A stretch of 64,000 bases of DNA, taken from NCBI GenBank assembly GCA_964230645.1, contig CAXRHT010000002.1, positions 736,001 to 800,000 on the forward strand, read 5' to 3'. Below the pieces are notes generated by a model that saw only the letters and a program-made list of their open reading frames with translations, made no database searches and had not been told where the DNA came from. Both the position numbers and the translations under genes were made by a program. This DNA comes from Bdellovibrionales bacterium. GTDB lineage: Bacteria > Bdellovibrionota > Bdellovibrionia > Bdellovibrionales > JAGQZY01. Positions 10,588-37,822 of this stretch are shown here, in pieces (positions within the stretch are counted from its first letter, which is position 1; each line of letters starts with the position of its first letter).

Positions 10588-12237
10588 ATGGAAAAACATT
10601 ACGATTACCTTATTGTGGGTGGTGGCTCAGCGGGTTGTGTTCTCGCCAATCGATTGAGCGAAGATAAGAACACAAAGGTTTTAATGCTTGAAGCTGGAAG
10701 GCCTGACTATTGGTGGGATATTTTTATCCACATGCCAGCCGCCCTCACCATACCTATCGGAAATAAAAATTATGACTGGTGTTATGAGTCAGAACCGGAA
10801 CCTCACCTTGGAGGACGACGGATCTTTCACGCAAGAGGGAAGGTTCTCGGAGGTTCGAGCTCAATTAATGGAATGATTTTCCAAAGAGGTAATCCCATGG
10901 ATTTTCAGCGCTGGGCCGCAGACTCCGGTATGGAAAATTGGGACTACTATCACTGTCTCCCCTATTTCAAGAAAATGGAAAACTGTATTGCTGGTGGTGA
11001 TGAGTATCGTGGGACTAAGGGGCCTCTTGAGCTCGAACGTGGACCAGGGAAAAATCCGCTTTTCCAAAGTTTTTTGCAGGCTTGCGAAGAGGCTGGGCAT
11101 CCACGCACAAAAGATGTGAACGGCTACCAGCAAGAGGGTTTTGCTCTTTTTGATCGAAATGTTAGGAAAGGACGCAGGCTTTCTGCAGCCAGAGCTTATT
11201 ACCATCCCGTAAAGAACCGAGAAAATTTGGAACTCAGAACCCGAGTCCACACCAACAAAATTTTATTTGATGGTTTAAAAGCGGTTGGAGTGGAATACCA
11301 AGACTCCCGTGGAAAAGTTCATCAAGTGAAAGCCAACGAAGTGATTCTTTGCACAGGGGCTGTAACCTCCCCTCAACTTCTCCAGCTCTCAGGCATCGGC
11401 AACCCGGAATTGCTGCAGTCTTTGGATATACCCGTAAAACTTCCATTAAACGGAGTGGGTGAAAACCTGCAGGACCATCTGGAAGTTTATGTTCAGTACA
11501 AATGCAAAAAGCCGGTCTCAATGAACCCGGCCTTAAAATGGTATCGCAAACCCGATATCGGACTGCAGTGGCTCTTTCGAAAAGGTCCAGCAGCAACAAA
11601 TCACTTTGAAGCCGGTGGTTTTATAAAGTCCAATGACAGCTATCAATACCCTAACCTGATGTTTCACTTTCTTCCACTAGCCGTGCGCTACGATGGCTCC
11701 TCTCCTGAGGGAGATCACGGCTATCAGGTGCATGTAGGCCCGATGTACTCAAACTCGCGTGGTAGCGTTAAGATTAAAACAACGAACCCTAAAGATTACC
11801 CTGCTCTTTTATTCAATTACCTCTCCACTGCCGAGGACGAACAGGAATGGGTGGAGGCGATTGAAAAAGCCAGAGAAATACTCTCGCAACCGGCCATGAA
11901 GGAGTTCAACGGCGGAGAAATTTCGCCGGGCCCTCAGGTAAAATCAAGAGAAGAAATTCTCGACTGGGTTCGTAGAGATAGCGAAACAGCCATTCACCCC
12001 TGTGGTACCTGTAAAATGGGAACAGACGAACTCTCAGTGGTTGATCCAAAGACTATGCGGGTCCATGGCACCGAAGGCCTAAGAATCGTTGACGGCTCGG
12101 TGATGCCCTACATTCCCAATGGAAATATCTACGCTCCCATTATGATGACAGCCGAAAAGTCCGCAGACCTAATCTTAGGAAAAACACCTTTAGTTCCTGA
12201 GAAAGTCGATTTTTATGCAGGCAAAGAGTCGGTTTAA
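10588..12237 (+). CDS. betA: Choline dehydrogenase (GMC oxidoreductase)
   Basis: [50 protein letters not shown]. Confidence 0.88.
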
Positions 12238-12517: not shown

Positions 12518-13924
12518 TTAAAAAACCCGACTCTCACCATTTTCATAATTAAAATTTTGAAGTTCATTCCATATATAATTGATGACAGTGCTATAGTTAT
12601 TTCGAACTAGAGGATGAACGGTGTTGGGTATGTTTAGATTGTCTGGTGGCTGAGTTTTATAAATCGCAGAGTAAGTAATCAACGAAGCCAGGAAGTAGAG
12701 AGTCGGTTGCCCATGGGGAGCATCATCTTCATAAAGAGAAGTTAAGGGAATGCCCTGTAAAGGTGTTTGCGTAACCAGACCGCTAATAATAGGCCCCACT
12801 GGAATCATTTTAATCTGACTGCCAGGGCGAGCTGACAGCAGAGAGTCGTGATAGTCTAAAAACCACTGATGAAAATCACCGGTCCTGGTGTCACGGTTGT
12901 AACGCGCAAAATCCACTCCACCGGGGAAGGCCCCATAGCCTCCCATGTCGGGCCAGTTTTCATAAATGTAAAAGGGAATTCCTGGATGAGCCGCCCGCGA
13001 CTGATCATAAATTTCAAGGGTCGCGGATAAGGGACTCACCGACGGATTGTCAAAATAGGGAGCCGAAGGAGCCTGATACTGAATAAAATTGGCCGGCGTC
13101 ATCATAATCAAATTGAAATCGACCTGTGAAAAAGGCGTGTTCTCATTTGTCCAAGTCGAAGTCACATTGGGAAAACCCCACTGAGGGGAGATATTGTTAA
13201 AGTTGGCGTGATTTTGCAGAAAACCATACTGTCCGTCGGCGGCAAAACTTTTATTATCTTGTCCAGCAATCACCGACAGCCAGTGAGGGACTTTTTTCTC
13301 CTCCGTTGGACTGGGCGTATGCTCATGAACGATCAGGCTGTGACCAAAAATAAAAAGCCTTAGATCGTCGGGGCCCTCACTCACGGGAGGCTCCACGACA
13401 GGAGGTGGCTCAACTTCACAACTCCGGTGCACCAAAGGACCACTCCAATTAGAAAATTCTCCGTTGTTGCATTGCCTTGTTTGCGTCATGCCACTGCCGC
13501 AGCTCTGACCATAGGGAACAGTTTCTTGTGGATAAAAAGTTCCCACCTCAATGTCGCCATGAGGCGTGTTGCCACAAGAGGCGGTATTAACTCCTTGCAC
13601 TTCACAGGATGTAAACTGGTAGAGATCCGATCCTGAAAAAGAACTCCACTCCCCATTAAAGCAAGTTCGAGTGCGAGTTTGCCCCTCACACGTCGCTCCC
13701 CTTTCTTGCCGGTACATTCTTATTGATTCCGTTCCTAGGTGCGGAGTGGATCCACAGGAGAGCATAAGGGTTGGATTTTCGGTTTGAGGCCCTTGATTTT
13801 GGCTTTGCCCCGTCTTTTCTAAATTGGATTTAAAATCATTAGAACAATTCTGGAATAAAATCAGACAAAGCCCTACACTTAGTATAAGTATCAATTTTTT
13901 TTGATTTTTATAGGTGCCCACCAT
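12518..13924 (-). CDS. Lipoprotein with two Cys-rich repeats and an SGNH-like C-terminal domain
   Basis: LFQNC lipobox; SCG.TPH...R.C.NGE.S..SG repeats; EPPPVVEPP linker; FIFGHSL and DDAPH motifs. Confidence 0.6.
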   Translation of the reverse strand: MVGTYKNQKKLILILSVGLCLILFQNCSNDFKSNLEKTGQSQNQGPQTENPTLMLSCGSTPHLGTESIRMYRQERGATCEGQTRTRTCFNGEWSSFSGSDLYQFTSCEVQGVNTASCGNTPHGDIEVGTFYPQETVPYGQSCGSGMTQTRQCNNGEFSNWSGPLVHRSCEVEPPPVVEPPVSEGPDDLRLFIFGHSLIVHEHTPSPTEEKKVPHWLSVIAGQDNKSFAADGQYGFLQNHANFNNISPQWGFPNVTSTWTNENTPFSQVDFNLIMMTPANFIQYQAPSAPYFDNPSVSPLSATLEIYDQSRAAHPGIPFYIYENWPDMGGYGAFPGGVDFARYNRDTRTGDFHQWFLDYHDSLLSARPGSQIKMIPVGPIISGLVTQTPLQGIPLTSLYEDDAPHGQPTLYFLASLITYSAIYKTQPPDNLNIPNTVHPLVRNNYSTVINYIWNELQNFNYENGESRVF

Positions 13925-19595: not shown

Positions 19596-20291
19596 ATGAG
19601 TTCTATTAAAATACACCGCATTACTGCTGACGATTCCTGGGAAATGATGTGGAAAGGCTGGGAGCTGGCTCGCGTGAACTATCCCCTAGCTTTGATCATT
19701 TCGATCCTCTTTTTTGTAGGTACAATCTTGGGATCTATCCCATTTGTAGGACCCCTCATTGCGGGAGTGGTTACCACTCTTGCCCCTCTTGTTTTCCTTG
19801 AGGCCAGTCGTCTTTGGGAAAATGGTGAAAAGGGTGACTTCCAGACGGTTATGAAAGTTTTTGAAAATAAAGATCGTCTAAACGCCCTCACCCCTCTTCT
19901 TTTGATTCAGTTAGTTATCTCAGCCGGCCCCGGGCTTCTAGCCATGCTGCCTTTTTTAGGCGCTGTTGTTGGACTGCTATCGCTTATAACAATACCCATT
20001 TCCATTATTGTCAGCCTCTCAATTCCAATTTTGTTTTTTAATTATCTTTATGAGGATATGGACTACAAAAGGGCCCTAAGCTGGGCTGTTGAAGGGATTG
20101 TTCAAAACTTTGTCGCTTTTATCGTTCTGGTTCTTCTCGTGTGTGTGCTTTCAGTGATCTGTCTTATTCCACTAGGGCTGGGCATTATTTTTGTGGCATT
20201 CCCTATTTACATCACCATTGGTTATCTCTGGTACCGAAGCGTATACGAAGGTCTTCAGTTTGAAAAGGACAAAGAAAAAAGTCTTATTTAA
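19596..20291 (+). CDS. Integral membrane protein of unknown function
   Basis: About 5-6 hydrophobic segments. Confidence 0.7.
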   Translation: MSSIKIHRITADDSWEMMWKGWELARVNYPLALIISILFFVGTILGSIPFVGPLIAGVVTTLAPLVFLEASRLWENGEKGDFQTVMKVFENKDRLNALTPLLLIQLVISAGPGLLAMLPFLGAVVGLLSLITIPISIIVSLSIPILFFNYLYEDMDYKRALSWAVEGIVQNFVAFIVLVLLVCVLSVICLIPLGLGIIFVAFPIYITIGYLWYRSVYEGLQFEKDKEKSLI

Positions 20292-20703
20292 ATTGTGCCA
20301 CCGCTTTGAACTCAACGGCAATCGGTGTGGGTAAAGCCCCAACTTCTACTGTGGTTCGACAGGGTCCTGACTCCACCGAAAAATATTCGGCGTAAACTTC
20401 GTTAAAAGCCTTAAAATCTTTTTTCATATTGGTAAGAAAGCACTGCACATCAACAAGGTTCTCAAGATCAAGACCTGAATCCTGTAACACAAGGCGTACG
20501 TTTTCGATCACAGCTTTCGTTTGAACTTTCACATCATAGTCCAAGACACTGCCAGCATCATCAAAAACCACTCCAGGGATTTCTTTGGTACCCTTCTGCC
20601 TCGGCCCCACACCCGAGAGGAACAAAAGGTCTCCCACTCTGCGCGCATGAGGATAACTTCCAACAGGCTCCGGCGCCTTCTGACTGATCACTTGCTCATC
20701 CAT
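20284..20703 (-). CDS. RidA family protein, probable 2-aminomuconate deaminase
   Basis: PEPVGSYPHARRVGDLLFLSG, FNEVYAEYF, PCRTTVEV, LPTPIAVEFK; AAGGAG RBS. Confidence 0.85.
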   Translation of the reverse strand: MDEQVISQKAPEPVGSYPHARRVGDLLFLSGVGPRQKGTKEIPGVVFDDAGSVLDYDVKVQTKAVIENVRLVLQDSGLDLENLVDVQCFLTNMKKDFKAFNEVYAEYFSVESGPCRTTVEVGALPTPIAVEFKAVAQFK

Positions 20704-20726
20704 AACCACTCCTTTTCGAAACCACC

Positions 20727-20775
20727 AAAAGGTACCAGCTTCCCAATGGTAGCGCCAACGCGTTATTCACGACGC
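20727..20775. repeat. Degenerate half copy of the 56399-56477 palindromic element
   Basis: AAAAGGTACCAGCTTCCCAATGGTAGCG versus AAAAGGTACCTGCTTCCCCTTGGTAGCG. Confidence 0.65.
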
Positions 20776-20867
20776 CGTATGGCCATATAGAAAATTTAAA
20801 TAAAAGAGAATGCGTAGTTCAGTCCTGCTCCACTGAGAGCTAACTTTAAGCCCATTAAAATTTAGTT

Positions 20868-22070
20868 TTACAATGAGGACTCTGGAAGCTCCACTTCAGC
20901 GGTGATAGCATCGATGATGGGATTAAAAGGCTGGTGCCTTTGAGCTGTAGACCAATTGATTCCATCGCTAGAGATTTTTCGAGTGGATGAGGCATTCTCA
21001 CCCCAACTTCTCGAGAAGCTATAAAAAGTTCCATTTGAATAACCTTGAATGGAGTCTGACGAGTTCCCCATCGTTGTCCAGTTAAGCCCATCTGTAGAGG
21101 AATAATTTATGCGCCCGGCGCGTAAATAAAATGTGCTATTCTCTTTTGAAAAATAAATCGAACCAATACTATCAGCAAACTGGTGGCCAGTTACCCATTC
21201 CTCGGTTTGGGTATTGAAGAGCCTCAGTTGAGAATTTTCGGAACTATCGACGAAGAGAAAAATGCCGAGGCCTGCGCTGAACGTTGTCTGCACGCTTTCG
21301 CTAGTGTTAACATCCCAGTTCATGCCATCCTTACTAAAGGCAAGAGGGGCTCCGCCACTTCCTACCGCCATAAAATAACCGTTTTCAAACTCCATTCGGC
21401 GATATGCTCCATTGGGCCTTGAACCGCTAGCCCAATTTATACGTTGCCAGTTTTGACCGTCAGCACTCCAAACACTGGTTCCACCTCCCATGGAAGCAAA
21501 TACATTATTTCCGAAAGTGATATCTCCCGCCCAGGGGCAACCACCATATGTTACAGTGTCTTTATCGAGAACGATTTCATCCGTCCAATTCTCTCCATCT
21601 TTAGATGTTCTTACATTGACGTGACAACAGCCTCCAATAGCAACAAATTGATTGTTTCCAAAAGCAATCCCACGAAACATATGGGGATCATGATCGGGTG
21701 CGTAGGGTTCAAATTTTCCAAAACGGCACTGATCCTTTAAATAAGCCTCCGAATAGCTTTGCCCCGGAATCAATTGCTGCTCGATATGTTTGAGGGTTTC
21801 AAAGCCATCATGACTGGTCATAATGGCTCCCCCTCGTCCCACACCCACTGAAACACTTTGTTTTTTCAAAGGTGATGGTTGATCTGGAAGAGGTTCATCC
21901 TCTTCATTATCTAAATTGGTTTCATCATTTTGATTGGAAGACTCGCTGCCTTGTTGAGCGCCCAACTCAGCCTGAAAAGGAGTAGGACTGCACCCTTGAT
22001 AGATAAAAATAATACCTAGAAGAAGAACAAGAAAAATATTGATGCTTTTTGAATTTAAACTCAAGACCAC
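20868..22070 (-). CDS. Lipoprotein with BNR/Asp-box-like beta-propeller repeats
   Basis: IYQGC lipobox; repeated S.DG.NW and IAFGNN.FVA. Confidence 0.7.
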   Translation of the reverse strand: MVLSLNSKSINIFLVLLLGIIFIYQGCSPTPFQAELGAQQGSESSNQNDETNLDNEEDEPLPDQPSPLKKQSVSVGVGRGGAIMTSHDGFETLKHIEQQLIPGQSYSEAYLKDQCRFGKFEPYAPDHDPHMFRGIAFGNNQFVAIGGCCHVNVRTSKDGENWTDEIVLDKDTVTYGGCPWAGDITFGNNVFASMGGGTSVWSADGQNWQRINWASGSRPNGAYRRMEFENGYFMAVGSGGAPLAFSKDGMNWDVNTSESVQTTFSAGLGIFLFVDSSENSQLRLFNTQTEEWVTGHQFADSIGSIYFSKENSTFYLRAGRINYSSTDGLNWTTMGNSSDSIQGYSNGTFYSFSRSWGENASSTRKISSDGINWSTAQRHQPFNPIIDAITAEVELPESSL

Positions 22071-22226
22071 CCACCCTTTTTATTAGTATAGGGCGACCTT
22101 CCTCCGAGCAAAAGTCTTAATATTAAAAAGGATTTTATGACAAAAGCTCTGACGTTATTTTCGAAAAATACTTTTATTTTTCTCAGTTTGAAGCGATTTT
22201 AAACTTCGGAAAGTTCTCGAAACGAA

Positions 22227-23303
22227 TCACCAGTTATGGTTCTGATAATCGAAATACCAACGATCATGATCAGGGTCCCATTCATCCCAAGTGGGAACCT
22301 CTTCAATTTTGCTCACAAGGTTTTCCGGAACAATACCTGGAACAACGAAAGCTTTCTGTCTTTTTAGGGGATAAGGATTTCGCAGCTCCATTCCTAAAAC
22401 TCCAAGGATGGATCTTGCCACATACCAGGTGGCTTGTGGATTCCAACCATGGGCAATTTTAATAACCACACCAAGGCCTTTAGGATACTCAGGATGTTCG
22501 ATGGCCATTCCCAAAAGTCCATCGGCTCCCTCTTTAGCGATCACCTTTCCTTTACAAGATTTAATCACTGTTGTGTCGAGGCGATTAAAGCCACCAATCA
22601 GATCGGGCTCTTTAGTAAAGGCCTCCCAAATCCAGTCCTCATCTTTCTTCTGAGCGAGCTTAGCGTAACACTGAGCCAATTCATTCACGGTCATTGCCAC
22701 TGTAGGCAGACCATCCCCGTCTCTCGCTACCCTTGGTGGCTCATAATCTTCCCCTAAATAATCTCTGACAATTTCAAGGTAAGCCTTGAAAATGGGGTGA
22801 TTGGGGAGAGTGTAGCCGGCCCGGTTCCAACCTTTTAAACGGCAACCTTTTAAAATGGCGGCGTGATGTCCCGAAGAATTATTGTACCATCTTCGAGGTC
22901 GACGCACCTGTCTTCCAAATTGCACAAGAGGAAGATCGAGAGGTGTGAGCATGAGTCCCCACTCCCCTTCACTTAATAAACTTTGAGCCGCTTCCACATG
23001 TTGAGCCGTGCCGTTGTGGCTAGCCAGCGCAATAGCCTTTTGTTTCCAATCGGTGACCTCAGACAATTCATCGGCAAAGACTTTTATATAAAAAGGCTTC
23101 ATCATGGAGCGCCCATAGCAAAGGACATTTCCGCCCCAGGCGTGTATTTTTTCATCGCCACTGTACCAAGATACCGCTCCGTGAATAGTGTTTTCACTCA
23201 CACCATTTCGCCTAAAATCGACAAGAGGTTCCCACTCCACATCGCGTCCTGTGGGCAAGTTGGATTCTTTTTCACCTAAGGGACTGGAAGGATAGACTTT
23301 CAT
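22227..23303 (-). CDS. Class 3 (Rhizobium-type, asparaginase II) amidohydrolase homologue
   Basis: RSMMKP, ASHNG, NNSSGHH, DGDG, KEGADG; ATGA overlap with upstream gene. Confidence 0.8.
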   Translation of the reverse strand: MKVYPSSPLGEKESNLPTGRDVEWEPLVDFRRNGVSENTIHGAVSWYSGDEKIHAWGGNVLCYGRSMMKPFYIKVFADELSEVTDWKQKAIALASHNGTAQHVEAAQSLLSEGEWGLMLTPLDLPLVQFGRQVRRPRRWYNNSSGHHAAILKGCRLKGWNRAGYTLPNHPIFKAYLEIVRDYLGEDYEPPRVARDGDGLPTVAMTVNELAQCYAKLAQKKDEDWIWEAFTKEPDLIGGFNRLDTTVIKSCKGKVIAKEGADGLLGMAIEHPEYPKGLGVVIKIAHGWNPQATWYVARSILGVLGMELRNPYPLKRQKAFVVPGIVPENLVSKIEEVPTWDEWDPDHDRWYFDYQNHNW

Positions 23304-24271
23304 AGGGACTCATCCTCAAGGGGTTCATCTTCTGATGAGAGAACATTACGATCTCCCGGAAAGAAATCCACATTGTCTTCATCAAACTCCAGATCAGGAG
23401 CAGGATGCGAAGTCGGAGTTAGACCTACAACAGCGGCTCCTGTTCCTTGAATAGGTTGATACTCAAAGATCTCTCCTTTATAGGCATTGGTCTCTCCCAT
23501 CACAGAAGCCAGCCACCAAAAGGGCTTAAAGTTTACCACTTTTTTCGTCACTCTCGCTTCTCTATGAAATTGCCTTGAAAGCTGTGACACATCCTCTAAG
23601 CGTCCGCGGGACAAAAACTCAAGAAACTTTTGATTCCACTCTTCATCTTTTTTTGATGAGATTTCATCAGGACACTCTTTGGGGTCCTTTAATGTGTAAC
23701 GGTTAGATAAACTACTGATCGAAATCACCACCGCTTTTTTGTTTTGTTTTTTAAGGGCGTCTTTGGCCCCTTTGCCTAGAATAATTTGCTCGGCGCGGTC
23801 CGAATAGATGTTGCTCGAAACAATGCAGGATTTAAATTTATTTTTAGGATCGAGAAGTTTTAAACAAACCACAGAGCCTGTATCAATAGGAAAACCCTCG
23901 TAGGCCGTAAGCCTTGAGGTGAGTCCTCTTTCGATGTTGGCTTCATTATAGGCTTTGGCGAATTCCACATCGGTTTGAAATTCATAGGGAATACTGCCAA
24001 GTGAGTGCCATTCATCATCAACGAGAGTCCATTTTGGCTTAGGAAGCGCTTGAATCTGATGACCTAAAATACTGGCCCAGTAGGTTGAGTAAACAAGGAT
24101 CAAATCAGGATTTAACTCATCCACTTCTTTGGCGACTTTATCATAAGCCTGTCGGACCTTTTTCCAACTGCTTCTCTCATCAGGCTTTAATAACGGGTGA
24201 GGTAAACCGGGAAGCACATAACCCTTCAAAACATTTTCGCAGTGACTGCTGGTGTATTCTGCTTTTTCCAT
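23300..24271 (-). CDS. amnA: 2-aminophenol 1,6-dioxygenase alpha subunit-like (LigB family)
   Basis: VLPGLPHPLLKP, PDLILVYSTYW, GFPIDTG, GTGAAVV; acidic C-terminal extension. Confidence 0.75.
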   Translation of the reverse strand: MEKAEYTSSHCENVLKGYVLPGLPHPLLKPDERSSWKKVRQAYDKVAKEVDELNPDLILVYSTYWASILGHQIQALPKPKWTLVDDEWHSLGSIPYEFQTDVEFAKAYNEANIERGLTSRLTAYEGFPIDTGSVVCLKLLDPKNKFKSCIVSSNIYSDRAEQIILGKGAKDALKKQNKKAVVISISSLSNRYTLKDPKECPDEISSKKDEEWNQKFLEFLSRGRLEDVSQLSRQFHREARVTKKVVNFKPFWWLASVMGETNAYKGEIFEYQPIQGTGAAVVGLTPTSHPAPDLEFDEDNVDFFPGDRNVLSSEDEPLEDESL

Positions 24272-25155
24272 CACTTAGCCCTCCACTCAGCGACCACATT
24301 ACCGGTACCAATCACGGTGCCATAGCCATGAATTTTCGCCGGTGCTTGAGGCATGCCCATAGCCGAGAGCATCCACATCAGCCCTCCGGCATCACACTCA
24401 CTAATGGTTTGTTCAGTAAAGTCAGTCATCACCTCAAAGATTGTCTGCACATCTCCTTTTTTCATAAGATCAATCATCTTCATGTCCCATAGATATTGAC
24501 CATGATGGTAAATATGCTCGGCACTCATGTCCTCTGGAACATCAGGCTCTGTAATAAAATGGCGATGAGACAGGGAGTGACTGGCAAGAAGAAGGCATTT
24601 CTTACCAGACTCCTCAATGGCTTTTTTTGTGGCCTCGCCGAGTTTAAGCATTTCCTCTTGCATCACGTCCATAGAAAAATAAGAAGCTCTTCCAACACTG
24701 GAAATGCCGACAATGGGTTTATCCCAAGAGGGATTTGTCATTTGCAAGGCTGTAATCGTTCCGTAGTCGATTCTGAAATCGGGATTTCTCATCATCTCTA
24801 CAAGCATTTCATTGTTCTTAGCTTCTTGATAAATCTTTTCAGCCAAATCGACGTCGACTTTTAAATCGTAATTAAAGCGAAACAAATGAGGAAAGATAGG
24901 GTCCACTGATTTCGATTTAAATTCAGGACACCCCAGAAAGTGCGTGGCAATTTGGGTTCTCCAATGAGGGGAGTGGACCAATATCACATCGTAATCCACA
25001 TCACTTAAAGAATCTCTTAATCTCTCATAGGCCCATCTCAAAGTTTCCCAGCCACACTCTGAGCGAGGCTCGTTCTGAGGGGGGTTCTCTCCATAGACAA
25101 GATGGGGAGGATGGGGCGCTAAACATCCAGCAACAATTTGACCTTTTTGACTCAT
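24271..25155 (-). CDS. amnB: 2-aminophenol 1,6-dioxygenase beta (catalytic) subunit-like
   Basis: APHPPHLVYGENPPQNEPRS..GWE, HSPHW, SHSLSHRH, YGTVIGTGN. Confidence 0.88.
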   Translation of the reverse strand: MSQKGQIVAGCLAPHPPHLVYGENPPQNEPRSECGWETLRWAYERLRDSLSDVDYDVILVHSPHWRTQIATHFLGCPEFKSKSVDPIFPHLFRFNYDLKVDVDLAEKIYQEAKNNEMLVEMMRNPDFRIDYGTITALQMTNPSWDKPIVGISSVGRASYFSMDVMQEEMLKLGEATKKAIEESGKKCLLLASHSLSHRHFITEPDVPEDMSAEHIYHHGQYLWDMKMIDLMKKGDVQTIFEVMTDFTEQTISECDAGGLMWMLSAMGMPQAPAKIHGYGTVIGTGNVVAEWRAK

Positions 25156-25427
25156 AGTCTGGCAATATAAGAGTTGAAGAGGAGCTTGTCTAGCCTCCAT
25201 TTCTATTGTTCATTATCTATTGCCCCTGTGATTTCAATCCTTTAGCAGGAAGACCCCTTTCATATCTGAGGCAAGACTTCCCTACGTGCTTAAATCCAGA
25301 GGGCTTCCCCTATTCTATTTGATATTGTCGATTTTTTTCTCGATTGGACTTTTTGCCCCACTCAAATCCAAGAAAATGGCTTTTCTCCCTATTCCCTCTT
25401 GTTTCGCCCAAGCTCGTACCCTCAAAC

Positions 25428-25435
25428 TCCGATAA
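25428..25435 (+). promoter_or_regulatory. Sigma-28-like -10 box
   Basis: CAAG-N15-TCCGATAA upstream of 25485. Confidence 0.5.
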
Positions 25436-25484
25436 GACAAACAGAGGAGACAGGTGATGAGGAAGCAACAAAAGGAATGAAACC

Positions 25485-26144
25485 ATGGAAAAGTCCAAGC
25501 TAATCTTTATATTAGGATTTTCTTCTCTATTAATGAGTTGCTCTGGAGGGTCCGACTCTAGCAACACACTCGATTCACAACTGATTTCGTCTGATGTCGC
25601 CTACGCTTCTTGGCCCAACAGCACCACCACAAAAACAAACTCCATTCAGATCACTTCCCCTGTTCTTCTTTCTGACATGAACAAAGACGGAGTACTGGAA
25701 AACATTTTCATTACAGTTTTACCAAACTCCACTCAACCGGAAAATAGTGTTCTGCGCGTAACAAGTGGTGAGGCCTATGATGAAATCGTAAACTACGATG
25801 CCAACAGGACTCCCCTTTTTCAAAATTCTTATCCCTTCGTCTACGACGTCAATGATGATGGTGATAAGGAGCTTCTCCTAGTTGGATACGATCTTGATAA
25901 AGTTTACTGCTTTGACTTTAAAGACAATGAGCTGGACCAAATTTATATCCGCTGGTCGGCTCGCCTCCCTCAGGCTCTCCCCTCTGGTTTTGATCCTCGA
26001 ATGAAGCTTATTGAAAAAGACGAGCAGATCATGATTCAAATTGAAAACTATGGGATTTTTGAGAAAAAACACAGAAAACCCAAAGTTGTTTTTATTAATC
26101 CTCCCGGTAAAGACCAAGAGGATGATGACGACGACGATGACTGA
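25485..26144 (+). CDS. Lipoprotein with FG-GAP-like Ca-binding motifs and poly-Asp tail
   Basis: LMSC lipobox; DMNKDG and DVNDDGDKE. Confidence 0.7.
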   Translation: MEKSKLIFILGFSSLLMSCSGGSDSSNTLDSQLISSDVAYASWPNSTTTKTNSIQITSPVLLSDMNKDGVLENIFITVLPNSTQPENSVLRVTSGEAYDEIVNYDANRTPLFQNSYPFVYDVNDDGDKELLLVGYDLDKVYCFDFKDNELDQIYIRWSARLPQALPSGFDPRMKLIEKDEQIMIQIENYGIFEKKHRKPKVVFINPPGKDQEDDDDDDD

Positions 26145-26311
26145 GCGCACTCGAAGGATCGCCTCATTTTAAGAAATCTTCCAGCCTCTCTAAGACTCTG
26201 AACTTCTTTTTGTCGCAGCTTAGAAGCTGGCCTTTTATCCAATGAGTCCTTAAGCGATTAAAATCACTAAAGATATAACACCTTTTCACCTTCCCACTTG
26301 AAACAACCCCC

Positions 26312-26338
26312 TAATATTTCTCCTGTTTTCTCCGATAT
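26312..26338 (+). promoter_or_regulatory. Sigma-28-like promoter
   Basis: TAAT-N15-TCCGATAT upstream of the kinase. Confidence 0.5.
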
Positions 26339-26365
26339 ATAGGATGGAGACATCAGAGGAACCTC

Positions 26366-28372
26366 ATGAACCTACCAAAAATTAATGATCAATTTGAGCA
26401 TTATAAAATCCTCTCTACTTTGGGAGAAGGAGCCATGGGACAGGTCTTCCTTGCTGAGGACCTCAAGTTAGGAAGAAAAGTCGCCTTAAAGTTCTCCGGT
26501 ACAGACAAACAGAAATCGAATCCCGTTTTATTAAAACGCTTTGAAAACGAAGCTAGAACTTTAGCCGCTCTCAATCATCCAAATATCGTCAACGTCTTCG
26601 ACTTCGGCCATTGCGGTGATTTACGTTATTTGGCTATGGAATACGTACAGGGTGACACCCTGATGCGGATCATTCAGAAAAAAGCCTTTGGTATAAAAGA
26701 CAGTTTAGAAACCATTAGACAAGTCGCCAGTGGTGTTGGGGCGTCTCACCAAAAAGGTGTTCTTCACCGGGATATTAAACCAGCTAATATCCTTATAGAC
26801 GAAAATAAAAAAGTAAAACTCGTGGACTTCGGCATTGCAAAGTCCTTGCAGTCCGAAGATGGCAATCTGACCCAGGCCGATCACTTCATTGGAACTATTA
26901 ATTACATCGCTCCTGAGATATTAACCGGTCACCCTCCCTCTCCCTGCTCAGATATATTTTCCATAGGAGTTGTTTTTTACGAATTGGTCACAGGACTTCA
27001 TCCATTCACTGGAGAAAATAAGTTTGAAACCATGGAAAAGGTAAAATTTCAGGAAATCACTTTCCCCCCAGATATGGAATCTCTCCTTCCTGAGTCTCTA
27101 AAGGGACTCATTATGAAAATGCTTTCCAAAGATAAAACGAAGCGCTTTCAGTGCACAGATGATCTTATCAAATCTATTGATAAAAGCTTTGAACACCTAC
27201 ATCCTGATTTGCATCAAATCTCGATTCGCCCCGACATCATTGTACTTAATCGCTCGGAATTGCGTCTGCAATTACTAAAACAAGGTTATCAAGAAAATGA
27301 AATTCGACTGATCATTCATCAAGCCGCACAGCTCGAGGATATGGGGCAAGTGTTCGGCCCCGATGAGGGTGATCAAACACTTGATACGTCGAATATGAGC
27401 TTGAAAAACAAGATCACCATAAGTCCGATGAACCTCAAAGCATCTATAACTAGCTTTGAAAACTCGAAAACACAAATCTCAAAATCCACCGCCACAGTGG
27501 TAACAAAGACCAAAACCAAACCAGAAAACAATAAACAAACACAAAAGCCCACGGCCCAAAACCTCTATCCCAATGACACTGATCAAGAAGAAATTCCCTA
27601 TCCACTTTACAAGCCCAACTTTTTTAAAAAGGCCTTTGTCTTCCTCGGGTTCATTACCCTATTAGGCAGTGGAATCTATAATTACAAATCTAAGACGGTT
27701 TTCTACAAAAAAGCCCTCGAGTACTCTTCCATTTTTCTAGAACAAAAAGGAGAAACAGAAGAAAAGGTAGTCGTCGATACTAAACAAAGAGAAATATCCT
27801 CCCTACCGTCCGTGTATATGGACTCTCCTCCCGCTGGCTCACAGTTTACTTTTCGTCATGTTAAAACAAGTGGTGATGAACGTAAAACAGACCTTGATGT
27901 GCAAAAATTGCTAAAAATCAAAAGAAGTGCTAACGGGGTCATCTCTCTTAATATCAAAAATCTCAGTACCGGCAAATGGAGTCAAGCTCGATGGTCGGAG
28001 AATGTGATTGCACCTCCACTGAGGTATTATGAAAAAAATGGTCGCAATGAAAAGACGACCCTTCCTCCGAACCATAAATCTATCTATCCGCTCAATATCG
28101 GACGCAAAGGTCAATTTCGCTATCAGATTGTCAATACCGATGGAAGCTTCTCTCAAGGAGAGAAAAACTGTGAGGTTTCTGGCCATATGGAAAAAGTCGT
28201 TCTCGGTAAGGCCCGATCGATATTGGTTATCCAATGTCAGAACACAGTCGATGGAATAAAGCGGGACACAAGCATCCACTATGCACCCGATCTTAAGATA
28301 AGCGTCAAAAGAGAGTCCCACTGGAAACAAGGGGTAACGCCTCATTACGAGCTGTGGGAACTGGTTAAATAA
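26366..28372 (+). CDS. Hanks-type Ser/Thr protein kinase with TM and C-terminal extracytoplasmic domain
   Basis: LGEGAMGQV, VALK, HRDIKPAN, DFG, GTINYIAPE; TM near residues 423-438. Confidence 0.93.
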   Translation: MNLPKINDQFEHYKILSTLGEGAMGQVFLAEDLKLGRKVALKFSGTDKQKSNPVLLKRFENEARTLAALNHPNIVNVFDFGHCGDLRYLAMEYVQGDTLMRIIQKKAFGIKDSLETIRQVASGVGASHQKGVLHRDIKPANILIDENKKVKLVDFGIAKSLQSEDGNLTQADHFIGTINYIAPEILTGHPPSPCSDIFSIGVVFYELVTGLHPFTGENKFETMEKVKFQEITFPPDMESLLPESLKGLIMKMLSKDKTKRFQCTDDLIKSIDKSFEHLHPDLHQISIRPDIIVLNRSELRLQLLKQGYQENEIRLIIHQAAQLEDMGQVFGPDEGDQTLDTSNMSLKNKITISPMNLKASITSFENSKTQISKSTATVVTKTKTKPENNKQTQKPTAQNLYPNDTDQEEIPYPLYKPNFFKKAFVFLGFITLLGSGIYNYKSKTVFYKKALEYSSIFLEQKGETEEKVVVDTKQREISSLPSVYMDSPPAGSQFTFRHVKTSGDERKTDLDVQKLLKIKRSANGVISLNIKNLSTGKWSQARWSENVIAPPLRYYEKNGRNEKTTLPPNHKSIYPLNIGRKGQFRYQIVNTDGSFSQGEKNCEVSGHMEKVVLGKARSILVIQCQNTVDGIKRDTSIHYAPDLKISVKRESHWKQGVTPHYELWELVK

Positions 28373-28389
28373 AGAACGAATAAATAGAA

Positions 28390-29838
28390 TTAAAGCTCGT
28401 AGTTCATACTCACGTTTTGAGTCTCTGTGAAAAACTCTAGGGAGTAATCCCCGCCTTCTCGACCGACACCGGATTGCTTCATACCACCAAGGGGAGTCCT
28501 TAAATTTCGGTACATCCAAGTATTCACCCACACGGTCCCGGCCTGAATTTTCTTCGACAAACGGTGAACCCGTGAGTGATCATTGGTCCAAAGAGTGGCC
28601 GAGAGTCCATAGGGGACACTATTGGCCATTTCTAGAACTTCGTCCTCGCTTTTGAAAGAAGTGAGAGTGACAACGGGACCAAAAATTTCTTCGTTCTGTA
28701 CACGGCAGTCTTGGCTCAAACCAGAGAGGACTGTCGGACGCATAAAATAGCCGTCTTTCATTTCACTAGGCAGGTTCTTCACTTCCTGACTGGTGTGAAC
28801 CACTCCGCCTTCTTTTCTCGCAAGCTCAACATAACTTTGAACTTTTTCCAGATGCTCTTTTGAAACCAAGGCCCCTAAGAAGTTGCTGTCATCGGATGGA
28901 TCTCCAACCTTGAGCTTCTCGGCTTCAACGACGAGATCTTTTAAAAACTGGTCATAAATCTCTTCTTGTATAAAAATGCGAGACCCACAGAGACATATTT
29001 CTCCTTGGTTCAGGAAGCTTGATCGCAAGGTTGTTTTTAGGGCCTTTTTGTAATCGCAGTCAGAAAAAATAATATTGGGATTCTTTCCGCCCAGCTCAAA
29101 ACTCGTTTTCTTAAAGTCTCCCGCTACGCTCTTTGCAATGTGGGCCCCTGTTTTGGTTCCGCCGGTGAATGAAATTACCGGCACATCCGGGTGTTCTATG
29201 AGTGCTTGTCCTGTCTGTGTTCCTAATCCATGGACAATATTGATCACACCCGGTGGAAGACCGGCTTCAATGGTTAATTTTCCGAACAGGTAGGCTGTCA
29301 TCGGTGTTAGTTCCGAAGGTTTACAGACGGCAGTGTTTCCAGCCGCGATACAGGGAGCAATCTTCCAGGTGAGTAAATAAAGAGGAAGATTCCAGGGGGA
29401 GATCAAAGCACAAGGCCCATAGGGGATATGATTGACGTATTCGACTTTCCCCTTCTCATCGGTGAAAGCTGTCGATTTAAAACTTTGAATAGCATGGGCA
29501 AAAAATCGTAAATTTTGACTGGCCCGTGGTATGTCTACTTTCTTAGTCAGCCAAAGAGGCTTTCCCTGATCTAAGCTTTCAGCTTGGGCGAGTTGTTCAA
29601 AGTTTTGATCAATCAAATCGGCTAAACGCATAAGGGCCGCGGCTCGATCTCCGGGCGAAAAATCAGACCAAATACCAAAGGCTTGCTTAGCAGCACCCAC
29701 AGCTCTATTGACATCTTCGGAGTCGGAGTTGGGGGTTTGGCTATAAACTTGACCCGTTGCAGGCGTGAAATTATCAAGGTAATTTCCACCCACGGGATCA
29801 ACAAACTCTCCACCAATCAAATTTTTGATTTTCTCCAT
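28390..29838 (-). CDS. 2-aminomuconate 6-semialdehyde dehydrogenase-like ALDH (ALDH8/AmnC type)
   Basis: ISPWNLPLYLLTWKIAP, ELGGKNP, NQGEICLCGSR, EEIFGPV; TAATG overlap with LLM gene. Confidence 0.88.
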   Translation of the reverse strand: MEKIKNLIGGEFVDPVGGNYLDNFTPATGQVYSQTPNSDSEDVNRAVGAAKQAFGIWSDFSPGDRAAALMRLADLIDQNFEQLAQAESLDQGKPLWLTKKVDIPRASQNLRFFAHAIQSFKSTAFTDEKGKVEYVNHIPYGPCALISPWNLPLYLLTWKIAPCIAAGNTAVCKPSELTPMTAYLFGKLTIEAGLPPGVINIVHGLGTQTGQALIEHPDVPVISFTGGTKTGAHIAKSVAGDFKKTSFELGGKNPNIIFSDCDYKKALKTTLRSSFLNQGEICLCGSRIFIQEEIYDQFLKDLVVEAEKLKVGDPSDDSNFLGALVSKEHLEKVQSYVELARKEGGVVHTSQEVKNLPSEMKDGYFMRPTVLSGLSQDCRVQNEEIFGPVVTLTSFKSEDEVLEMANSVPYGLSATLWTNDHSRVHRLSKKIQAGTVWVNTWMYRNLRTPLGGMKQSGVGREGGDYSLEFFTETQNVSMNYEL

Positions 29839-31064
29839 TACGCGTCCTTTATATGAGGAGCCACTTTTTCCATAAACGTTCTCATATTTTGGCAAACCTC
29901 TGGGCTATTGTGATTGTTAAAATCAAACCAAAGCATCAAACGATCTTCTGGATGAAATCTTTCTTTAATTTGTTCGATGATCGTTTCGGGATGACCGACC
30001 AAGGCATTATCTACTGCCTTTGCTAACTTCACAGGATCGATCGTTCCCTGTATGGCTGACCAGTAGGCTTTGTTAGCATCGGTGGCAAGCTCAGTGGCTC
30101 GCTTATCGTTTTCTTCTTTTGAGAGCTTGGGATCGTCACTTGGAAAAACTAATACAGTTCTAGGCATATGAGATCTTTTCCACTCGCCTTTGTAGGTCTT
30201 CTTCATGCGCTCATGGGTTTTCTCAATCACTTCTGGAGGAGTGATGGAAAGATTAAAAACTCCACAGGGTAAGAATTGATTGGCCCACTCGTGCGCTTCG
30301 GCCCAGTGTGCCCCTATGGTTAGGTTCAAATACTCTAAAGGCGCTTCAAAGGGAATCACACCCACTTTTTCAAAATCCCAAAAAGAGGGAAGTTCAATTT
30401 TTTCGGGCTCGCCCGTTGTATTATTTTCTTTGTTGTAGGCTTCAACAACCTTTTGCCAGTCTTCCTCTGTGCGGAAAAATTCCTTTTTAAGATACATAGG
30501 TGCGATGTCTTTGGAAGAAAACACTTCACTTTTAAGAAAACGTAAAAAGATCTCTGTGGCTTGTAAAAAAGCTCGGCCGTTTACTACGGGCCAACCCACT
30601 TTTTCCACTTCAGAGCGAGGCTTGATCCCATAAGGTCGATTGGAAAAAGGAAAACGTCCAGCAGCAAAACCTAATTCAAGCTTTCGATCGGTATTGTGGT
30701 GAAGAGCATGAAGACTCAAAAAGGTCTTTACAGCTTCAGCATGGGCAATGGGACCACCGTTACAAAGAATATTTCTAATGGCAGAGCCAACATTTATTTG
30801 CTTCGTTTGTGAGAAGAGAAGATGCGCGACCTGCAAGACATCTGTGTTAAGCCCAATTTCTCCTTTGAAATTGGGAATAACGGCCCCTGGGTTTTCTTTT
30901 TGAACCTGGCAGGAAAGGTGAGTTTCAGCCACCCAAGCGGTTTGAAACCCAAGTTCATCCGCAAGTTTGGCCTGCTCAAAAAAGTTTTTGAGCATTGTCT
31001 TTTCATTGGGTTTATGGCCCTTCACTTCATTTTGGCATATGGATAAAAATATATCGAGAGTCAT
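29838..31064 (-). CDS. Luciferase-like (LLM) flavin-dependent monooxygenase
   Basis: AKLADELGFQTAWVAETH, INVGSAI, LELGFAAG, ALVGHPE. Confidence 0.82.
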   Translation of the reverse strand: MTLDIFLSICQNEVKGHKPNEKTMLKNFFEQAKLADELGFQTAWVAETHLSCQVQKENPGAVIPNFKGEIGLNTDVLQVAHLLFSQTKQINVGSAIRNILCNGGPIAHAEAVKTFLSLHALHHNTDRKLELGFAAGRFPFSNRPYGIKPRSEVEKVGWPVVNGRAFLQATEIFLRFLKSEVFSSKDIAPMYLKKEFFRTEEDWQKVVEAYNKENNTTGEPEKIELPSFWDFEKVGVIPFEAPLEYLNLTIGAHWAEAHEWANQFLPCGVFNLSITPPEVIEKTHERMKKTYKGEWKRSHMPRTVLVFPSDDPKLSKEENDKRATELATDANKAYWSAIQGTIDPVKLAKAVDNALVGHPETIIEQIKERFHPEDRLMLWFDFNNHNSPEVCQNMRTFMEKVAPHIKDA

Positions 31065-31825
31065 ATCGCCCCCACTCTTCCACCGTCCACAGCAATGCTT
31101 TGGCCGGTAATATAATTGGCTTTTTCGGAACAAATAAATCGAATGAGGTCGGCTGTTTCTTCAGGCTGGGCAAAGCGTTTCATCGGCACTTTACTCATCC
31201 ACTCCCTTTCTACATCGGCGTAACTTTTATTCTCTTGGTCGGCCTTGGCCCGAATCAGGGACTCCAGCCTCGGAGTTTGAGTGAAACCAGGCATCACATT
31301 GTTGACTGTAATCCCGTGAGGGGCGAGCTCCAAAGATAAGGTTTTTCCCCAACTCGCAACAGCGGCTCTGACAGTGTTCGATACTCCCAAGTGAGGGATC
31401 GGGATCTTTACAGAAGTTGATGTGATAGTCACAAAGCGACCCCAGTTTTTCTTTTTCATTTCATCGAGAACAATTCTTGTAATCATCGAATTTGCAATGA
31501 GGTGATTATTCATGCCACCCAAAAATTCCTCAGGCATGGCTTTTGAGATAGGGCCACCTTTGGGCCCTCCTGAATTGAGAATCACAATATTGAAGGGAGC
31601 CTTTTCATGCTCGGCCCCAATGGCTCCCTGCCAGGTTTCCGACCTTCCAATATCACCAGCAAGATAATTATGCCCTCGACCTGGAAGATCACTCACTATT
31701 TTTTTTAGCTTGTCCTCACTGCGAGAGAATAGGCAGACACTGACACCATCACTAGCCAAACCTTTTGCGACCGCTTCACCGATCCCCTGTGAAGCGCCTA
31801 GCACCAAAGCTCGTTTGTTTTCCAT
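31061..31825 (-). CDS. SDR oxidoreductase
   Basis: GASQGIG, NSGGP, SN..RAAV, ITVNNVMPG, GQSIAVDGG; ATGA overlap with LLM gene. Confidence 0.92.
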   Translation of the reverse strand: MENKRALVLGASQGIGEAVAKGLASDGVSVCLFSRSEDKLKKIVSDLPGRGHNYLAGDIGRSETWQGAIGAEHEKAPFNIVILNSGGPKGGPISKAMPEEFLGGMNNHLIANSMITRIVLDEMKKKNWGRFVTITSTSVKIPIPHLGVSNTVRAAVASWGKTLSLELAPHGITVNNVMPGFTQTPRLESLIRAKADQENKSYADVEREWMSKVPMKRFAQPEETADLIRFICSEKANYITGQSIAVDGGRVGAI

Positions 31826-37294: not shown

Positions 37295-37822
37295 CTATTT
37301 AAGGTGCTTGTTCACTAATTTTGTCATTTCAAACATAGAAACTTGGTTCTTACCGAAAACTTTTTTCAAGTTATCATCGGCATTGATCATTCTTCTGTTT
37401 TTAGAGTCTTGAAGGTCGTTCTTCTTGATGTATACCCAAAGGTTTTTAATCGCTTGAGTACGAGGAAGAGGTTTACCTCCAACAACAGCGGCAAGATCAT
37501 CCGTAGGAGTCAAAGGCTTCATGAAAGCCGCGTTTGGTTTACGCTTAGACTTCTTCTTAGTCGCCTTTTTCTTTTTAGCTGTTTTTTTCTTAGTGGCTTT
37601 TTTAGCGGCTTTCTTTTTAGTCGCTTTTTTCTTAGTGGCTTTTTTCTTAGTTTTCTTTTTAGCCGCTTTTTTCTTAGTAGCCTTCTTCTTAGTTTTCTTT
37701 TTAGCCGCTTTTTTCTTAGTGGCTTTCTTCTTCGCTTTTTTAGCTACTTTTTTCTTAGCCGTCTTTTTCTTAGTGGCTTTTTTCTTTGTCTTCTTCTTAC
37801 TGGCTTTCTTTTTTCTTGCCAT
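37295..37822 (-). CDS. Histone H1-like K/A/T-rich protein fused to a SWIB/MDM2 domain
   Basis: ~93 aa of KKKA/KKAT repeats, then AFMKPL..LAAVVG..PR...LWVYIKKNDLQD..NRRMINAD..L..VFG..VSMFEM. Confidence 0.9.
   Translation of the reverse strand: MARKKKASKKKTKKKATKKKTAKKKVAKKAKKKATKKKAAKKKTKKKATKKKAAKKKTKKKATKKKATKKKAAKKATKKKTAKKKKATKKKSKRKPNAAFMKPLTPTDDLAAVVGGKPLPRTQAIKNLWVYIKKNDLQDSKNRRMINADDNLKKVFGKNQVSMFEMTKLVNKHLK

Follow-up and report, generated by a model that had tools for sequence, protein, structure and literature searches.

A stretch of 64,000 nucleotides from a Bdellovibrionales bacterium (contig CAXRHT010000002.1, positions 736,001 to 800,000), referred to below as the window, carries seven minus-strand genes encoding a short-chain dehydrogenase/reductase (SDR), a luciferase-like monooxygenase (LLM), an aldehyde dehydrogenase (ALDH), the two subunits of a 2-aminophenol 1,6-dioxygenase (AmnB and AmnA), a class 3 asparaginase homologue (ASP) and a Rid-family protein (RidA). 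The cluster is shared by several phyla and by bacteria and archaea, and it most probably represents a hitherto undescribed branch of tryptophan catabolism with two new enzyme activities. We consider it very probable that it is a kynurenine-linked bypass of the canonical pathway. It also seems rather probable that it degrades kynurenine without kynurenine 3-monooxygenase (KMO), kynureninase (KynU), 3-hydroxyanthranilate dioxygenase (HAO) and 2-amino-3-carboxymuconate-6-semialdehyde decarboxylase (ACMSD), by the successive action of LLM, ASP and AmnAB. In the following, G000 is the genome that carries the window (99.6% complete), and fetched loci, genomes, families and genera are labelled L, G, f and g.

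Organization and Conservation of the Gene Cluster

The features of the cluster are listed below.

31061..31825, minus strand: SDR oxidoreductase (Pfam adh_short_C2)
29838..31064, minus strand: LLM, 408 aa, divergent luciferase-like flavin monooxygenase (Pfam PF00296 Bac_luciferase, a weak match, 1.9e-11)
28390..29838, minus strand: ALDH, 2-aminomuconate 6-semialdehyde dehydrogenase-like, AmnC type (Pfam Aldedh, PDB matches)
24271..25155 (upstream ATG at 25200), minus strand: AmnB, beta (catalytic) subunit of 2-aminophenol 1,6-dioxygenase (Pfam LigB, solved structures)
23300..24271, minus strand: AmnA, alpha subunit of 2-aminophenol 1,6-dioxygenase, with a C-terminal extension (Pfam LigB, solved structures)
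23339..23395, minus strand: acidic tail motif of AmnA, residues 293-311 (conservation across AmnA copies)
22227..23303, minus strand: ASP, class 3 asparaginase (asparaginase-II) homologue, 358 aa (Pfam PF06089 Asparaginase_II, 2.7e-47)
20284..20703, minus strand: RidA, Rid-family 2-aminomuconate deaminase-like protein (Pfam Ribonuc_L-PSP)

The original prediction, made from the window alone, described seven genes with four stop/start overlaps. All of them were confirmed, and the junction letters are exact (SDR/LLM ATGA, LLM/ALDH TAATG, amnB/amnA TGATG, amnA/ASP ATGA). The downstream position of RidA was also borne out (20703-20284 on the minus strand), the start of ridA lying about 1.5 kb beyond the ASP stop with one 400-aa gene in between. 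Two plus-strand genes, a 219-aa open reading frame (ORF; 25485-26144) and a Ser/Thr kinase gene (26366-28372), separate SDR-LLM-ALDH from amnB-amnA-ASP. A scan for promoters and terminators gave a result at chance level.

The relatives of the cluster were collected with the ASP protein, and the locus counts refer to the best 80 of 321 confirmed loci, many of which are incomplete. The homologues closest to ASP of the window (85–94% identity) belong to Bdellovibrionales assemblies. The partner genes present in the 80 loci were amnA (73), amnB (68), ridA (66), ALDH (49), SDR (40) and LLM (39); of the 54 loci that extend upstream of ASP by 6.5 kb or more, 52 hold amnB and 35 LLM. All seven genes occurred in 34 of the 80 loci, 31 of them having the order of the window on one strand and 25 having the genes within 8 kb. 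Because of these gene counts, the seven-gene association is not due to chance. The order in the relatives is a single operon, SDR-LLM-ALDH-amnB-amnA-ASP-ridA, and the window copy is this conserved operon interrupted by the 219-aa ORF, the kinase gene and the 400-aa gene. The commonest coupled junction in these loci is amnA-ASP.

The operon is linked to genes for tryptophan and kynurenine breakdown in several lineages. The tryptophan dioxygenase gene (TDO) directly follows ridA in L067, L073 and L076, the kynurenine formamidase gene kynB is coupled to LLM in L067, L076 and L078 and follows ridA in L037, and the cultured species Sulfidibacter corallicola and Acanthopleuribacter pedis have the arrangement TDO-SDR-LLM-ALDH. 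In a second phylum, that of G155, we surveyed 16 LLM loci, which come from 16 of its 26 LLM genomes. Three of them (L137, L145, L152) hold the complete set TDO-SDR-LLM-ASP-ALDH-amnB-amnA-ridA-kynB, nine hold kynB, and KMO, KynU, HAO and ACMSD were found in none of the 16. ASP orthologues numbered 25 among the 181 genomes of this phylum; 24 co-occur with LLM, and 17 of these 24 stand directly behind it by coordinates. The archaeal order Poseidoniales carries SDR-LLM-ASP-ALDH at one site and amnB-amnA-ridA at another, with TDO in two of three assemblies tested and KynU in neither of two. LLM-ASP adjacency predominates in these archaea and in the second phylum. The system thus occurs in Bdellovibrionota and Acidobacteriota, in one or more further bacterial phyla and in the marine Poseidoniales archaea. 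The predicted linkage of LLM and ASP to amnAB therefore recurs in other genomes and across phyla; on the other hand, the role first suggested for it, the use of prey aromatics, is too narrow for a system that is present also in Acidobacteriota and in archaea.

Some variants were seen among these loci. AmnA-RidA fusion proteins are encoded in L112 (5737-7140) and L113 (5232-6515), and L036 holds near-identical ridA duplicates (11098-11508 and 13052-13462) on either side of an ORF that we take to be Fic-like. In G000, G156 and G086, TDO is preceded by a threonine-aldolase-like pyridoxal phosphate (PLP) gene and a ureohydrolase-like gene (L158:1192-4270, L133, L159).

Mutual Exclusion with the Canonical Kynurenine Pathway

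The original prediction had proposed a genome search for kynA, kynB, kynU, nbaC and nbaD. In G000, a TDO gene (PF03301, E 3e-108, over the cut-off) was found on contig C1, separate from the window contig. A KynB-like gene lies 4 kb away from TDO, and its 216 bits fall just under the TIGR03035 cut-off of 223. KMO, KynU, HAO and ACMSD were not found by homology searches of this 99.6% complete genome, the HAO search having a positive control; tblastn gave a single weak KynU-like match, 26% over 161 aa. As NCBIfam has no model naming KMO or ACMSD, the queries for these two were natural proteins labelled by their position in canonical clusters and by family.

All gene profiles were then compared over the same 151 genomes of the window's own phylum, which contain LLM (24), amnB (19), TDO (104), KynU (34), HAO (31), ACMSD (31) and KMO orthologues (32). 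Every LLM genome has TDO and an ASP domain, which is stand-alone in 12 and fused in 12, and no genome combines LLM with any of KMO, KynU, HAO or ACMSD (0/24 for each). By chance, about eight LLM genomes would share KynU among the TDO genomes. Two extra KMO matches at 29–30% identity, one of them in G133, which carries LLM, were classed with other FAD monooxygenases and not counted. LLM is present in each of the 19 amnB genomes. The exclusion is also seen within single families: f10 has 10 LLM and 12 KynU genomes among 28, and f3 has 6 and 3 among 12. In the second phylum, LLM (26) and KynU (36) do not overlap in any of the 181 genomes. An in-place swap is visible between L104 (ridA-ALDH-two hydratases-LLM-ASP/kynB) and L103 (ridA-ALDH-two hydratases-HAO-ACMSD-kynU-ASP/kynB). 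Among the 104 genomes with TDO in the 151-genome sample, both KynU and LLM are missing from 46.

Since TDO and KynB share the operon in relatives and KynU is missing from all sampled LLM genomes, the substrate is very likely kynurenine. The first guess at the substrate, of an indole, tryptophan or anthranilate type or an N-acyl-aminophenol, is narrowed accordingly; indole, anthranilate and N-acyl-aminophenol are disfavoured, the enzyme that would produce anthranilate being KynU, which no sampled LLM genome has. The idea that LLM and ASP form an upper route has stood, both occupying the place expected of the canonical upper enzymes. G000 carries nadA, a nadB-like gene and nadC, and therefore needs no quinolinate from this route; a role of the cluster in quinolinate and NAD supply was rejected, as nadA is present.

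Proposed Route

The reactions described here are proposals drawn from the observed gene content, linkage, exclusion pattern, folds and conserved residues. Kynurenine is an aryl ketone, and its acyl part is a beta-aspartyl group. LLM would insert an oxygen between the ring and the carbonyl of kynurenine in a Baeyer–Villiger or Dakin type reaction with migration of the electron-rich o-aminophenyl group. The product would be the 2-aminophenyl beta-aspartyl ester, which may pass by an O-to-N acyl shift into the anilide N4-(2-hydroxyphenyl)-asparagine. The ester and the anilide are asparagine-like and therefore candidate substrates of ASP, which would hydrolyse either of them to L-aspartate and 2-aminophenol, a compound that AmnAB enzymes are known to use. 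The atoms balance for kynurenine giving 2-aminophenol and aspartate (C10H12N2O3 + O + H2O = C6H7NO + C4H7NO4). AmnAB would then open the ring to 2-aminomuconate semialdehyde, ALDH would oxidise the semialdehyde and the Rid protein would deaminate the product to 2-oxohex-3-enedioate, which SDR probably reduces to 2-oxoadipate, leading onward to the glutaryl-CoA route.

An oxygenase and a hydrolase of this kind would make KMO, KynU, HAO and ACMSD dispensable together. As there is no ACMSD, the ring must reach ALDH without its carboxyl group. We lean slightly towards the view that this is a third main aerobic tryptophan route, in which a kynurenine Baeyer–Villiger monooxygenase is followed by a beta-aspartyl-aminophenol hydrolase docked on the AmnA tail so as to pass on the labile aminophenol.

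Properties of the Predicted Enzymes

The structural model of LLM (pLDDT 93) is a luciferase-like TIM barrel. The fold matches include 8CBB (Z 31.3) and RslO1 and LuxA (Z 30.3), in an identity range of 16–20%. The match to 3,6-diketocamphane monooxygenase (4UWM) has a Z of 26.4 and a root-mean-square deviation of 3.6 over 320 aligned residues at 16% identity, and ranks below the luciferases and RslO1; no match to this enzyme was found at the sequence level. The LLM family holds 4,900 protein clusters at E ≤ 1e-20 with generic names only, and no characterised member of it was found. Two search patterns found no LLM relatives in viral contigs. LLM is a candidate kynurenine Baeyer–Villiger monooxygenase, with a plausible peroxyflavin chemistry as in the type II two-component FMN Baeyer–Villiger monooxygenases (BVMOs), although the proposed substrate here is an amino-aryl ketone amino acid. 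A candidate for its flavin reductase is the one PF01613 gene of G000 (C2:473567-474235), 290 kb away. For Caenibius tardaugens, PMC12239570 reports an LLM that performs Baeyer–Villiger oxidation of an acyclic ketone (progesterone) and whose reductase is unlinked, so the reductase may lie elsewhere.

The model of ASP (pLDDT 92) has the fold of ReAV and ReAIV, the class 3 L-asparaginases of Rhizobium etli (TM about 0.7, 21–25% identity). Both Ser-Lys tandems and the equivalents of ReAV Arg47, His139, Tyr156 and Asp187 are kept, and R65, S66, K69, S95, H147, Y164, D195 and K257 are invariant in 52 aligned rows. Unlike these enzymes, ASP of the window has Ser143, His146 and Asp197 at the zinc-ligand positions in place of Cys/Lys/Cys; it has an added conserved basic loop, and the stand-alone form is always tied to LLM. 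The full Ser/His/Asp state occurs in 74 of the 80 loci, Cys/Glu/Cys in three and other states in three; Cys/Glu/Cys is the state in archaea and the second phylum, and Cys/Lys/Cys that in fusions to KynB. In ReAV, Ser48 is the nucleophile that attacks the beta-aspartyl carbonyl, while the alpha-amino and alpha-carboxy groups are held in place by zinc (PMC12951835). These conserved residues make ASP a candidate beta-aspartyl ester or anilide hydrolase.

The basic loop of the stand-alone ASP is Arg-rich (residues 128-139), most of its positions being kept in 39–40 of 40 rows. AmnA matches 7TXY_A (E 7e-41) and 3VSG_A (E 3e-37), the alignment stopping at residue 282–290, and its acidic tail (293-311) lies beyond the end of the solved alpha subunits. 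Within the 80 loci, each of the 73 AmnA copies with more than 45% identity has this tail, and so do the Poseidoniales and second-phylum copies, with E295, D297, E298 and G306 invariant in 46 rows; it is absent from the copies of L107 and L114. The tail is a possible docking peptide, and our guess is that the ASP loop docks on it by charge complementarity. L112 and L113 keep the loop and miss the tail. In G086, a single-contig genome without amnB, LLM and a stand-alone ASP are adjacent with the catalytic motifs kept; ASP therefore need not act after ring cleavage. This copy, the only stand-alone one from an amnB-less genome, has lost the basic loop and lies on a longer branch.

Fusions of ASP to KynB (about 530 aa) occur in families f10 and f20 (L102-L109, L114-L119), in LLM and KynU genomes alike and usually beside TDO. 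They form a clade distant from the stand-alone clade of the window and keep the canonical Cys/Lys/Cys zinc site. Our guess from this sequence feature is that the fused form may serve as an ordinary asparaginase as well, hence its retention.

AmnAB was recognised as adjacent beta and alpha LigB-type subunits that are closest to solved AmnB and AmnA. AmnB matches over its full length 3VSG_B (E 3.7e-106), 8IHG_A (3e-105) and 7TXY_B (1.8e-101). The Fe ligands (two His and one Glu) and the catalytic His and Tyr are identical to the aligned residues of 3VSG_B and 8IHG_A. The residue after the catalytic His is Arg in 64 of 66 copies and Trp or Leu in the solved enzymes.

The seven best PDB sequences for ALDH are all 2-aminomuconate semialdehyde dehydrogenases (E 5e-130 to 7e-122), and both of their substrate-binding Arg residues align; the best NCBIfam model, TIGR03216, gave 527 bits, below its cut-off of 693. 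The best PDB match of RidA is the 2-aminomuconate deaminase 6IZH (E 4e-26), and ridA directly follows ASP in most relatives. A motif tally showed that SDR is of an SNxxR type, missing the usual catalytic Tyr, and its PDB matches include the bacilysin oxidoreductase YwfH (E 6e-32), presumably a C=C reductase. SDR homologues (36–48%) adjoin HAO and ACMSD in canonical clusters. SDR is a candidate reductase of 2-oxohex-3-enedioate (4-oxalocrotonate) to 2-oxoadipate, the least supported step of the route, and G000 has a glutaryl-CoA dehydrogenase. The genes for 4-oxalocrotonate decarboxylase and 2-oxopent-4-enoate hydratase, which belong to the amn pathway of nitroarene degraders, gave no tblastn match in G000; they are present in other LLM lineages (L104, L107, L114). 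The use of SDR as a marker of the route was rejected, close homologues being found in canonical clusters. In genus g9, six of nine genomes have a 45–47% SDR homologue and neither route is present in them.

Alternative Explanations

Several points weigh against the order LLM, ASP and AmnAB. The identity between LLM and known type II BVMOs is only 16%, and a fold does not tell the reaction; no flavin reductase lies within the operon in any mapped locus, and a 42% homologue on a Streptomyces clavuligerus megaplasmid (L162:12001-13245) has no partner genes within 12 kb. ReAV is inactive once either zinc cysteine is removed (PMC11024299), and ASP of the window, which has neither, must anchor its substrate in another way. 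The KynB-fused ASP is intact in nine genomes that have KynU, KMO and HAO and no LLM. Decay of the fused ASP in KynU genomes was not seen and it does not evolve faster there, the ASP/KynB distance ratio being 0.96–1.57 in three KynU pairs and 1.10–1.60 in three LLM pairs; the catalytic motifs are kept, with a change in the second tandem in one of six examined (L118). Five LLM genomes of the own phylum are without amnB. The exclusion counts (0/24) come from sampled genomes that are kin and are not independent. The Arg beside the catalytic His of AmnB could mean a different substrate, and this Arg, the AmnA tail and the ASP loop suit a hand-over of aminophenol but also an ASP that acts after ring cleavage.

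In the latter arrangement, LLM would hydroxylate kynurenine at position 3, the ring of the resulting 3-hydroxykynurenine would be opened by AmnAB, and ASP would cleave the C–C bond of the ring-opened enaminone to aspartate and 2-aminomuconate semialdehyde; we consider this unlikely. Meta-cleavage product hydrolases do cleave C–C bonds of ring-opened products, and this order fits the whole exclusion pattern equally well. It would also agree with amnA-ASP being the commonest junction of the first 80 loci, with the system-specific acidic tail and basic loop, with the faster evolution and loop loss of ASP in the amnB-less G086, and with the difference of AmnB from the solved enzymes beside its catalytic His. 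But AmnB is close, over its full length, to 2-aminophenol enzymes (PMC10470539), and a bulky aspartyl group beside the amine would be unlikely to fit. Moreover, LLM-ASP is retained without amnB in five genomes and LLM-ASP adjacency is dominant in archaea and the second phylum. We know of no precedent for C–C hydrolysis by the class 3 asparaginase fold. Aryl-acyl bonds are cleaved by retro-Friedel–Crafts chemistry in phloretin hydrolase, and ASP might likewise split 3-hydroxykynurenine made by LLM directly to 2-aminophenol and aspartate. This predicts the same gene content, and as AmnAB is not needed it accounts for the five LLM and ASP genomes without amnB; it could also account for ASP kept beside KMO in nine genomes. 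We regard it as improbable, since the hydroxyl, standing meta to the acyl group, would leave the ipso carbon unactivated, with Ser having to expel an aryl carbanion equivalent, and since ASP would compete with the neighbouring KynU-HAO-ACMSD in those nine genomes, which are without amnB.

A further possibility is that the upper enzymes use a substrate other than kynurenine, such as indole, anthranilate, N-formylkynurenine or a foreign N-acyl-aminophenol, the link to TDO being regulatory or partial. TDO and kynB of G000 do lie on another contig, the Streptomyces homologue is an orphan, and N-formylkynurenine could be the LLM substrate with KynB acting afterwards. However, TDO and kynB are inside the operon in several lineages, anthranilate has no source when KynU is missing, and the strict exclusion with the canonical pathway would otherwise be without reason; we hold this to be slightly more improbable than the direct aryl-acyl cleavage. 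The chances are slimmest for a one-for-one swap, of LLM for KMO, of ASP for kynureninase with release of alanine, and of AmnAB for HAO on 3-hydroxyanthranilate. Such a swap is simple, and nadC was over the cut-off in four of five LLM genomes tested, but nadA accounts for nadC in four of these five. Kynureninase chemistry requires PLP, ACMSD is present in 0/24 LLM genomes although decarboxylation is required before ALDH and RidA can act, and the mixtures of LLM with canonical enzymes that single replacements would permit are seen in no genome.

Neighbouring Genes

The two plus-strand insert genes and the 400-aa gene were rejected as members of the pathway, being found in only 0–4 of the 80 loci. 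The 400-aa protein (20868-22070, minus strand) looks secreted, has no Pfam match and has no homologue in the 80 loci. Elsewhere in the window, a minus-strand gene (37295-37822) encodes a Lys/Ala-rich histone-like repeat fused to a C-terminal domain which, in our opinion, resembles SWIB/MDM2. The Streptomyces clavuligerus LLM homologue sits between an eCIS-core-domain gene and genes for DUF389 and polyprenyl synthetase proteins.

Relation to Known Systems and Significance

The canonical bacterial pathway from kynurenine to 2-aminomuconate (TDO, KynB, KMO, KynU, HAO/NbaC, ACMSD/NbaD, NbaE, NbaF) shares with the cluster TDO and KynB upstream, the semialdehyde dehydrogenase, the Rid deaminase and SDR or hydratases downstream, and the same neighbourhood (L103, L120, L121). 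It differs in that LLM, ASP and AmnAB stand here instead of KMO, KynU, HAO and ACMSD, the predicted side-chain product being aspartate and not alanine plus CO2, with no PLP step and no quinolinate branch. The two-subunit LigB dioxygenase, the AmnC-type ALDH and the Rid deaminase are shared with the amn/cnb 2-aminophenol meta-cleavage of nitrobenzene degraders and with the ARO microcompartment (3VSG, 8IHG, 7TXY), whereas the proposed upper route here starts from kynurenine and not from nitroarene reduction, shell genes are missing and AmnA has the extra tail. According to the ARO paper (PMC10470539), it is not known from which precursor 2-aminophenol arises; its main text mentions no tryptophan, kynurenine, asparaginase or monooxygenase. 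A preprint (10.64898/2026.06.05.730449), in its accessible part, deals with steps after 2-aminomuconate in eukaryotes that are different from this route. No description of the route was found in the open-access literature, subscription papers being outside the search.

If the proposed route is true, two new activities would be added, a kynurenine Baeyer–Villiger oxygenase and an aspartyl-aminophenol hydrolase derived from a class 3 asparaginase, and the textbook pathway would gain a PLP-free branch. The annotation of a large LLM family and of many 'asparaginase II' genes would be corrected, and TDO without kynureninase would be explained in 24 of the 104 TDO-bearing genomes of the own phylum. 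Tryptophan would then be a natural source of 2-aminophenol, which would answer the precursor question raised in PMC10470539, and the amn genes of nitrobenzene degraders would have their original context in this operon.

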